This document shows positions 11,207-11,799 of a DNA stretch of 64,000 bases, piece after piece; position 1 is the stretch's first letter, and every line of letters begins with the position of its first letter. The stretch lies in assembly GCF_024223415.1 (NCBI RefSeq), contig NZ_CP100501.1; one strand, 5' to 3'. A program made the translations under genes and the position numbers. Origin of the DNA: Escherichia coli (lineage in GTDB: Bacteria; Pseudomonadota; Gammaproteobacteria; Enterobacterales; Enterobacteriaceae). The notes under the pieces were generated by a model that was not told the origin of the DNA, searched no databases, and was given only the letters and a program-made list of their open reading frames with translations.

Positions 11207-11455
11207 ATGCGAACACAGGTGACACTGCAAAAATGGGGCAACAGTATTGCTCTCCGGTTAACCGGAAATCTGAAAACCGTGCCGGGTTTTTCGGCAGGAG
11301 ATGTGGTTGATGTGGAAATCAGTGAGAAAGGATTGATCGTGGAAAAACCGGTGAGACCTCGTCTTACAGAGGCTGTATTGCTTGCGGGGCTGACGCCATT
11401 TTCCGCGCATGCAGATGAAGCTGCCACTCTTCTTGATAAGGAGAGTGAGTTCTGA
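11207..11455 (+). CDS. MazE/PemI-like (AbrB-fold) antitoxin
   Basis: MRTQVTLQKWGNSIALRL...; GGGGGAG SD; stop overlaps toxin start. Confidence 0.7.
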   Translation: MRTQVTLQKWGNSIALRLTGNLKTVPGFSAGDVVDVEISEKGLIVEKPVRPRLTEAVLLAGLTPFSAHADEAATLLDKESEF

Positions 11456-11799
11456 TGTTTGTTCCAAAGCGTGGTGATATTTGCTGGCTTGATTTTGAAC
11501 CCCAAAAAGGAAAAGAAATTGGCAAATATCGTCCGGCATTAATCCTGTCCCATGAGCAATATAATCGTTTAACAGGGCTTGTCATATGCTGCCCTGTCAG
11601 TACGAGTATCCGGGGCGCTCCAACAGAGGTTCCTGTTACTAATCTCGATGCACCAAGTGTGGTGGCCACAACGCTCATACAGACACTTGACTGGCGGCAA
11701 AGGCAAGTGCGTTTAATTACGGAAGCAGAAGAGGGCGTATTTGATGAGGTGCTTGAGAGAGTGATCACTCTGATTGGTGGTGAACATTTACTGAAGTGA
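11455..11799 (+). CDS. MazF/PemK-like endoribonuclease toxin
   Basis: MFVPKRGDICWLDFEPQKGKEIGKYRPALILS...GLVICCPVST, typical MazF/PemK family. Confidence 0.75.
   Translation: MFVPKRGDICWLDFEPQKGKEIGKYRPALILSHEQYNRLTGLVICCPVSTSIRGAPTEVPVTNLDAPSVVATTLIQTLDWRQRQVRLITEAEEGVFDEVLERVITLIGGEHLLK

Follow-up and report, generated by a model that had tools for sequence, protein, structure and literature searches.

A predicted MazEF-family toxin-antitoxin module between nikB and trbC of a rare I-complex plasmid lineage of Escherichia coli, probably acquired by recombination

The window, a 64,000-nucleotide stretch of Escherichia coli DNA (assembly GCF_024223415.1, contig NZ_CP100501.1), belongs to an I-complex conjugative plasmid and carries an antitoxin-toxin gene pair at positions 11207-11799, between the relaxase gene nikB and trbC. 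The pair very probably makes up an intact MazEF-family module (a type II toxin-antitoxin system), likely to stabilise its plasmid, which belongs to a rare I-complex sub-lineage and obtained the module not as cargo of the insertion sequences (IS) beside it but, in all likelihood, by recombination. It is an uncharacterised addition to a well-known family: a literature search on the subfamily, the pair, its protein accessions, its host plasmids and its I-complex location returned nothing relevant. The useful outcome is that the acquisition history is corrected and that a slot of variable content is defined 3' of the toxin gene; current understanding of toxin-antitoxin systems stands unchallenged by this pair.

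The gene pair and its proteins

The pair and its upstream signals comprise the following features:
11147-11175, plus strand: candidate promoter and operator (manual sub-threshold reading)
11207-11455, plus strand: mazE-like antitoxin gene, 82 amino acids, ATG start
11455-11799, plus strand: PemK/MazF-family toxin gene (predicted endoribonuclease), 114 amino acids, ATG start, TGA at 11797-11799

The operon places the antitoxin first and the toxin second, with the antitoxin stop and the toxin start overlapping by one base (TGATG, 11453-11457), an arrangement shared with the homologous loci L007 and L008. An AAGGAG motif lies at 11437-11442, 12 nt 5' of the toxin ATG, and the ATG at 11207 is adopted as the antitoxin start because MRTQ begins every homologue.

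With an E-value of 1e-24 and 87.3 bits (cut-off 23.1), far beyond chance, the toxin matches the Pfam family PemK_toxin (PF02452) along 107 of its 109 positions. In PDB it matches 28 MazF, Kid and EndoA sequences, the solved MazF structures among them scoring between E=4e-20 and E=3e-17. The best of these is the Deinococcus radiodurans MazF 7d28 (E=4e-20), with E. coli MazF at about 1e-17, whereas the match to Kid (1m1f) is far weaker (E=1.4e-6). Over the aligned stretches, identity reaches 41% with MazF-dr, 38% with E. coli MazF, 31% with ChpBK and 28% with Kid/PemK. The toxin scores below both NCBIfam equivalog cut-offs, at 94.5 bits against 120 for MazF (NF007386) and 45.3 bits against 129 for ChpB (NF007320). 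Judged by its sequence, it is a MazF-family member and the orthologue of no characterised toxin. Its automatic RefSeq name is 'type II toxin-antitoxin system PemK/MazF family toxin'.

Catalytic and RNA-binding roles in MazF are ascribed to E24, R29 and T52. In an alignment of the window toxin, 12 homologues and E. coli MazF, the toxin residues E21 and R26, equivalent to E24 and R29, are invariant, and T52 and T53 have S49 and T50 as their counterparts. Serine for threonine is a conservative change, and 90% or more of the subfamily members in the alignment have S49.

For the antitoxin, a single-sequence search of PDB returned MazE only (7d2n_E, E=2e-6; E. coli MazE 1ub4_C, E=5e-4), and a profile of 18 homologues gave three matches, each of them to a MazE antitoxin and with E between 6e-6 and 1e-5, the alignment to MazE spanning residues 6-70. 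The closest structural relatives of toxin and antitoxin come from one solved MazEF complex (7d28/7d2n). The predicted layout is an N-terminal AbrB/MazE/SpoVT-type DNA-binding region followed by an acidic C-terminal tail, and the automatic RefSeq names are 'AbrB/MazE/SpoVT family DNA-binding domain-containing protein' or 'cell growth regulatory protein MazE'. An earlier sequence-only reading of this DNA had described a canonical overlapping antitoxin-toxin pair of MazEF/PemIK type; the reading frames, their one-base overlap and the Pfam and PDB matches bear out the pair, and the MazEF part of the label fits (38-41% to MazF proteins) better than the PemIK part (28% to Kid/PemK).

Upstream of the antitoxin, TAGACA (11147-11152) and TAATGT (11170-11175) stand 17 nt apart as a candidate promoter with 8 of 12 consensus matches. 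The spacer is filled by a perfect palindrome, GGTGATT-A-AATCACC (11154-11168; GGTGATTAAATCACC), a putative operator. The chromosomal homologue has TGTAGACA 5' of its antitoxin gene, followed by a different palindrome, GAGTAATTACTC; the upstream regulatory DNA of the subfamily is not conserved, except for this layout of TAGACA plus palindrome.

The toxin subfamily is widespread in Gammaproteobacteria, with 838 clusters at E<=1e-10, including copies on Vibrio and Marinobacter plasmids whose toxins are about 65% identical to the one studied here. Complete E. coli genomes hold 15 plasmid copies at 99% DNA identity or more and 57 chromosomal records at about 76%, and the assembly collection lists the exact toxin protein in 4,352 blocks. 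Compared with the E. coli chromosomal homologue L007, the toxin shows 94% protein and 80% DNA identity with a dN/dS (nonsynonymous to synonymous ratio) of 0.018, and the antitoxin 76% and 72% with a dN/dS of 0.075, while synonymous sites are saturated (pS ~0.70). These low ratios indicate strong purifying selection on both genes, which counts against an inert relic, and both genes look functional from their sequences.

Among E. coli and Salmonella homologues, the nearest (toxin 81-94% identical) lie at the edge of P4-like satellites. In L007 and L024-L026 the pair stands between hpt and a P4-like satellite-type element, which next to the L007-type pair carries a P2-type capsid gene, Ogr/Delta, an integrase and a primase, and at least 57 complete E. 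coli genomes have the chromosomal pair at the edge of such an element. Two Salmonella loci (L020 and L023, 4753-5345) keep an intact toxin homologue of 81% identity. In their MazE-like gene, insertion of a RelB/ParE module upstream has cost the N-terminal DNA-binding half, leaving about 30 C-terminal codons in frame with no start codon. A Vibrio plasmid homologue adjoins TIR and SLATT genes.

Comparison with known systems places the pair within this family and apart from its best-studied members. It resembles the E. coli chromosomal MazEF (ChpA; 1ub4) and D. radiodurans MazEF-dr (5ck9, 7d28/7d2n) in having the antitoxin first, coupled reading frames and a PF02452 toxin, but differs from E. coli MazEF in that its toxin is no orthologue and has Ser for Thr52, and in being plasmid-borne downstream of a relaxase gene. 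PemIK/ParD (Kis-Kid of the IncFII plasmids R100 and R1) is likewise plasmid-borne and combines a toxin of the same superfamily with an AbrB-type antitoxin, although it differs in plasmid group, in plasmid location and in toxin sequence (28% identity to Kid). The Gammaproteobacteria MazEF subfamily shares most with the window pair (toxin 64-94% identical, an 82-amino-acid antitoxin starting MRTQ, a one-nucleotide overlap), but those relatives lie in satellites or chromosomes, unlike this pair on an I-complex plasmid.

Host plasmid, recombination patch and variable slot

The window represents an I-complex plasmid whose near-identical relatives are typed IncK2/Z or IncI-gamma/K1, MOBP and MPF_I, and in which the nikA-nikB relaxase operon is convergent with trbCBA. 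The features that bear on the acquisition of the pair are:
8436-11138, plus strand: nikB, with Relaxase and TraI_middle domains, ending 68 bp 5' of the pair
10622-11138, plus strand: divergent nikB 3' end, last ~172 codons, left part of the patch
18963-19099, minus strand: divergent trbC 3' end, last ~46 codons, right end of the patch

The pair is present in 14 of 72,556 PLSDB plasmids, all from E. coli, at 100% DNA identity in 13 and 99.8% in the other. A typical IncK2 plasmid, pDV10, has nikB, 220 bp and trbC without the pair, and in IncI1 plasmids the distance from nikB to trbC falls about 1 kb short of what the pair would need. An origin of the module with the I-complex itself is thereby excluded; a pair at this place in all IncI backbones would have spoken against the earlier reading of it as acquired, and IncI1 plasmids and typical IncK2 plasmids such as pDV10 lack it. 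All 10 contexts of the exact toxin protein read NikA-NikB (900 amino acids)-antitoxin-toxin-variable slot-TrbC.

The backbone on both sides of the pair is divergent as well. DNA homology to pDV10, pO145 and about 770 IncK/B/O/Z-type plasmids ends at 10618-10621 inside nikB, and homology to pDV10 returns at 19100 inside trbC, at 98.9%. At the protein level, NikB is more than 90% identical to that of pDV10 up to residue ~728 and about 50% thereafter, and the TrbC alignment stops at residue ~730 of 757, the last ~30-45 residues diverging. Among 2,581 NikB-type plasmids in PLSDB, 14 carry the NikB C-terminal allele of the window at 99% or more, the remainder falling below 60%; the other alleles include those of IncI1 (54.7%) and IncK/B/O (~48-50%). 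NikB and TrbC C-terminal alleles of the window type occur only in plasmids bearing the toxin-antitoxin pair. As the 3' ends of nikB and trbC have diverged together around the pair, homologous recombination with a divergent I-complex relative, itself absent from PLSDB, is the indicated route, and the patch extends over about 1.5 kb (10622-11801 plus 18815-19099). The joint replacement of the two C-termini may reflect the recombination end points or a matched interface, TrbC being presumably a DotL-like coupling protein. The pair is accordingly a clean marker of a rare IncK2/Z and IncI-gamma/K1 sub-lineage, mostly of poultry-associated E. coli, which also has a distinct relaxase C-terminus.

Between the toxin and trbC lies a slot of variable content, the right-hand part of which is retained in the window:
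18717-18962: slot remainder, with a palindrome, an EcoRII-type endonuclease remnant and a hairpin after trbC
18815-18829, minus strand: EcoRII-type endonuclease-start remnant, 15 nt, ATGTCGGTTTTCCAT

Slot lengths of 239 bp (pRM10042-1), 3,061 bp (pA16EC0070-1), 7,013 bp and 8,045 bp were recorded. The slot of pA16EC0070-1 holds a cytosine methyltransferase and an EcoRII-type endonuclease (EcoRII-N/EcoRII-C) and is followed by trbC, and in pRM10042-1 the toxin is followed by 239 bp and the DNA preceding trbC, with no IS. Over 10 contexts the slot contained an EcoRII-type restriction-modification system in six, the 239-bp remnant in three and an IS200/IS605 element in one; such a restriction-modification system stands beside the pair in 7 of 15 loci with a measurable slot. 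The 239-bp slot of pRM10042-1 was considered as the ancestral state and rejected, since it retains about 45 nt of the 5' coding end of the endonuclease; a GTA microhomology marks its deletion junction.

Two repeats were observed in the slot remainder. A perfect palindrome at 18751-18819 (31-nt arms, loop GACATAA) occupies the position of the restriction-modification system or its remnant in sister plasmids, and a 45-nt part of it recurs in about 170 PLSDB plasmids, including ~63-kb ones that we take to be IncI2-type; a snap-back inverted duplication and an imported terminator fragment are possible origins. An imperfect direct repeat of ~70-80 bp (18717-18760 and 18880-18960; 8655-8735 and 11785-11875 in L001) follows the pattern GCACACAAyCAAT...TTGACATCCTCCAyGCCCT...GTGGA with 77% identity and one 13-nt indel. 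Its copies lie directly after the toxin stop and after the trbC stop, bracketing the slot; the trbC-side copy forms a strong hairpin (fold z=-2.8) and the other is degenerate. A terminator that was duplicated and a site of recombination are both possible readings of this repeat.

Predicted role of the module and alternative readings

PemIK/Kis-Kid, for which post-segregational growth arrest is established, provides the functional analogy, and post-segregational killing that stabilises the plasmid would be the most likely role of the pair. From homology and its conserved catalytic residues, the toxin is predicted to act like MazF, as an endoribonuclease that cleaves single-stranded RNA without need of the ribosome, and translation of its gene is probably coupled to that of the antitoxin gene. 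By analogy, the N-terminal AbrB-type domain of the antitoxin would dimerise, bind the palindromic operator and repress its own promoter, and the acidic C-terminal tail would block the RNA groove of the toxin. If the antitoxin is less stable than the toxin, as in MazEF and PemIK/Kis-Kid, plasmid loss would free the toxin, arrest or kill the segregants and so stabilise the plasmid. A pair working as predicted would add a maintenance function that could aid persistence without antibiotic selection.

Several results weigh against an active, plasmid-stabilising module acquired by recombination. The antitoxin reaches 17.8 bits against Pfam MazE_antitoxin, below the gathering cut-off of 24.7; its AlphaFold2 monomer, built on an 18-sequence alignment, is poor (pLDDT 62, pTM 0.36), and a Foldseek search of PDB with that model found nothing at E<=0.001, with MazE 1ub4_C at E=1.3. 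The uninformative model is probably due to the intertwined-dimer fold. A consensus promoter scan of 10900-12100 called no plus-strand promoter, the 8 of 12 matches described above falling below its threshold. A terminator scan of the same interval found none, including between nikB and mazE, so expression by read-through from the relaxase operon is possible. Because the toxin lies under the MazF and ChpB equivalog cut-offs, the cleavage specificity of E. coli MazF is not transferable to it, and none of the 72,556 plasmids searched for a donor of the patch holds a relative of intermediate identity. The genomic company of the pair and its homologues belongs here too: the EcoRII-type neighbour in 7 of the 15 measurable loci, probably ancestral, the position of the closest E. 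coli and Salmonella homologues at satellite edges, and the TIR and SLATT genes beside the Vibrio plasmid copy.

These last three associations hint that the main role might be defence against phages and not plasmid addiction, with the module acting in abortive infection or protecting a small defence islet. Under this reading, regarded as unlikely but as the best placed of the alternatives, the antitoxin would run out once a phage shuts off host transcription or translation, and the RNase would be released. P4-like satellites do carry antiviral hotspots (PMC9122126), but the satellite homologues lie outside the psu-int hotspot of that study, in which MazF was not reported. PADLOC recognised neither of the two proteins, and adjacency to a restriction-modification system is equally expected of two independent addiction modules. 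Defence and addiction are not mutually exclusive roles.

A broader proposal, also improbable, treats the nikB-trbC junction of an unsampled I-complex lineage as a cargo slot for selfish or defence modules, with MazEF as a fixed anchor and swappable contents downstream (EcoRII-type restriction-modification, IS605 or IS nests). With no terminator after nikB, the pair might then be co-transcribed with the relaxase operon, so that addiction or abortive-infection defence would be on during transfer, and the paired NikB and TrbC C-termini might form a matched interface of relaxase and coupling protein.

The notion that the pair is an inert relic, either an inactivated toxin or an unexpressed orphan module, is very improbable. 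It draws on the lack of a called promoter, on the removal of native downstream sequence by the IS insertion and on the Ser in place of Thr52, but that Ser is kept across the subfamily, both reading frames are full length, the DNA is unchanged in 13 of the 14 PLSDB plasmids (99.8% in the fourteenth), the exact toxin protein is very widespread, and the dN/dS values are low despite saturated synonymous divergence.

The IS nest and the order of events

Downstream of the toxin, most of the slot in the window is filled by a nest of insertion sequences:
11794-11801: left target-site duplication AAGTGAAG, 8 bp, holding the last codon and stop of the toxin gene
11802-18708: IS nest, 6.9 kb, bounded by two inverted IS1414 right ends (IRR)
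11802-13876, minus strand: IS1414 (IS256-family) copy A, internally deleted and split by an IS3-family element
12056-13345: IS3-family copy A, 1,290 bp, inside IS1414 copy A (NCBIfam)
13891-14136: small open reading frame in the nest interior (13877-17183)
14264-15594: IS2, its extent taken from a 1,331-bp match to pEGY2
15595-17183: AT-rich unannotated DNA, 34-41% GC, no long open reading frame
17184-18493, plus strand: IS3-family copy B, 1,310 bp, inverted relative to IS3-family copy A
18494-18708, plus strand: IS1414 right-end fragment B, inverted relative to copy A
18709-18716: right target-site duplication AAGTGAAG, followed by CTAAGCACACAATC, which in plasmids without the nest comes directly after the toxin stop

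An IS256-family end starts at 11802, 2 bases past the toxin TGA. Over its first 254 bp it shows 100% identity with elements that carry the annotation 'IS256-like element IS1414 family transposase'; this confirms the IS256-family end that the sequence-only reading had placed at the toxin stop codon. Its description as a remnant also fits: the match of the minus-strand reading frame at 11835-12053 (72 amino acids) to Transposase_mut is confined to the final ~46 profile positions, and the IS1414 transposase fragments together cover profile positions 16-153 and 332-377 of 379, without an intact Mutator-type transposase. The right inverted repeat (IRR), GAGCCTGTTTAAGATTCTGTGTAAATGCC at 11802, and the left one (IRL), GAGCCTGTACATAGATTTGTGTAATTGCC reading inward from 13876, agree at 22 of 29 positions, and the IRR contains TGTAAA. 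Target duplications of 8 bp and a subterminal TGTAAA motif are typical of the IS256 family (PMC7780238).

The two outer arms, 11802-12018 and 18492-18708, form an inverted repeat with 100% complementarity. A single plain IS1414 insertion was considered and ruled out, both outer ends being the same IRR end. That same end at both extremities, inverted, makes it most likely that the unit inserted as a composite. The nest thus resembles Tn5/Tn10-type composite transposons in its identical inverted ends and 8-bp duplication but differs from them in that both IS1414 copies are truncated by IS3-family elements and no cargo gene is recognisable. Mobility of 11802-18708 as a unit is inferred from the target duplication only.

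Uninterrupted target sites give the order of events. The sequence to the left of the IS end is ...CTGAAGTGAAG, its last base at 11801, and that to the right of the nest, from 18709, is AAGTGAAGCTAAGCACACAATC...; 11 loci have the junction CTGAAGTGAAGCTAAGCACACAATC without interruption, each with the identical pair in place, namely the IS-free pRM10042-1, pA16EC0070-1 and nine further assembly contigs. The interval 11802-18708 is therefore one insertion with an 8-bp duplication of AAGTGAAG, and the toxin reading frame survived it because the stop codon lies within the duplicated target. The right junction is identical in nine PLSDB plasmids at 7-16 kb from the pair, the extra nest length in L003 and L009 including group II introns and IS100; a common right junction at differing distances points to one ancestral insertion followed by accretion.

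The earlier suggestion that the IS cluster brought in the module, or that the module sits at an IS-made junction, did not hold up: although the IS1414 end lies 2 nt past the stop codon and 12 of the 14 pair-bearing PLSDB plasmids share this junction, delivery by IS is hardly credible and the weakest of the alternatives, since the pair lies outside the duplication that brackets the nest, the 11 uninterrupted loci carry the same pair in the same place, the 68 bp between nikB and the pair contain no IS, and the co-diverged nikB and trbC 3' ends point to homologous recombination. An IS end touching a gene need not mean IS delivery; here the duplication and the uninterrupted sites give the opposite order.

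With acquisition by recombination as the preferred reading, the comparisons give four steps. First, nikB and trbC, which converge, had their 3' ends exchanged for a patch that brought the pair and, probably with it, an EcoRII-type restriction-modification system. This system was then deleted in the lineage of the window, leaving the 15-nt remnant. A unit with inverted IS1414 right ends next inserted 2 bases past the toxin stop, duplicating AAGTGAAG, and later accretion within the unit added the IS3-family elements and IS2 and, in sister plasmids, group II introns and IS100.

Further observations concern the contents of the nest and one distant locus. The IS3-family element at 12056-13345 is presumably IS629/IS1203-like; its ALIL frameshift pseudoknot (12391-12477) extends over 87 nt only (63.8 bits), compared with the full 117 nt (116 bits) in IS3-family copy B, and copy A is probably defective. 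The gene astA (EAST1), which we take to be embedded in IS1414, was sought in the remaining IS1414 fragments of the nest and is absent from them. The AT-rich DNA at 15595-17183 has a counterpart of about 80% identity within small mobilizable plasmids of E. coli (~8.9 kb), and the literature under the name pEGY2, the plasmid that matched IS2, concerns an unrelated Klebsiella plasmid. At 23817-23904 on the minus strand, an Rfam match to an AgrB-type antisense RNA (51.8 bits) was found, and relatives annotate dqlB, a DinQ-like type I toxin, in the matching region downstream of trbA; this would be a second, unrelated toxin-antitoxin locus of the plasmid.

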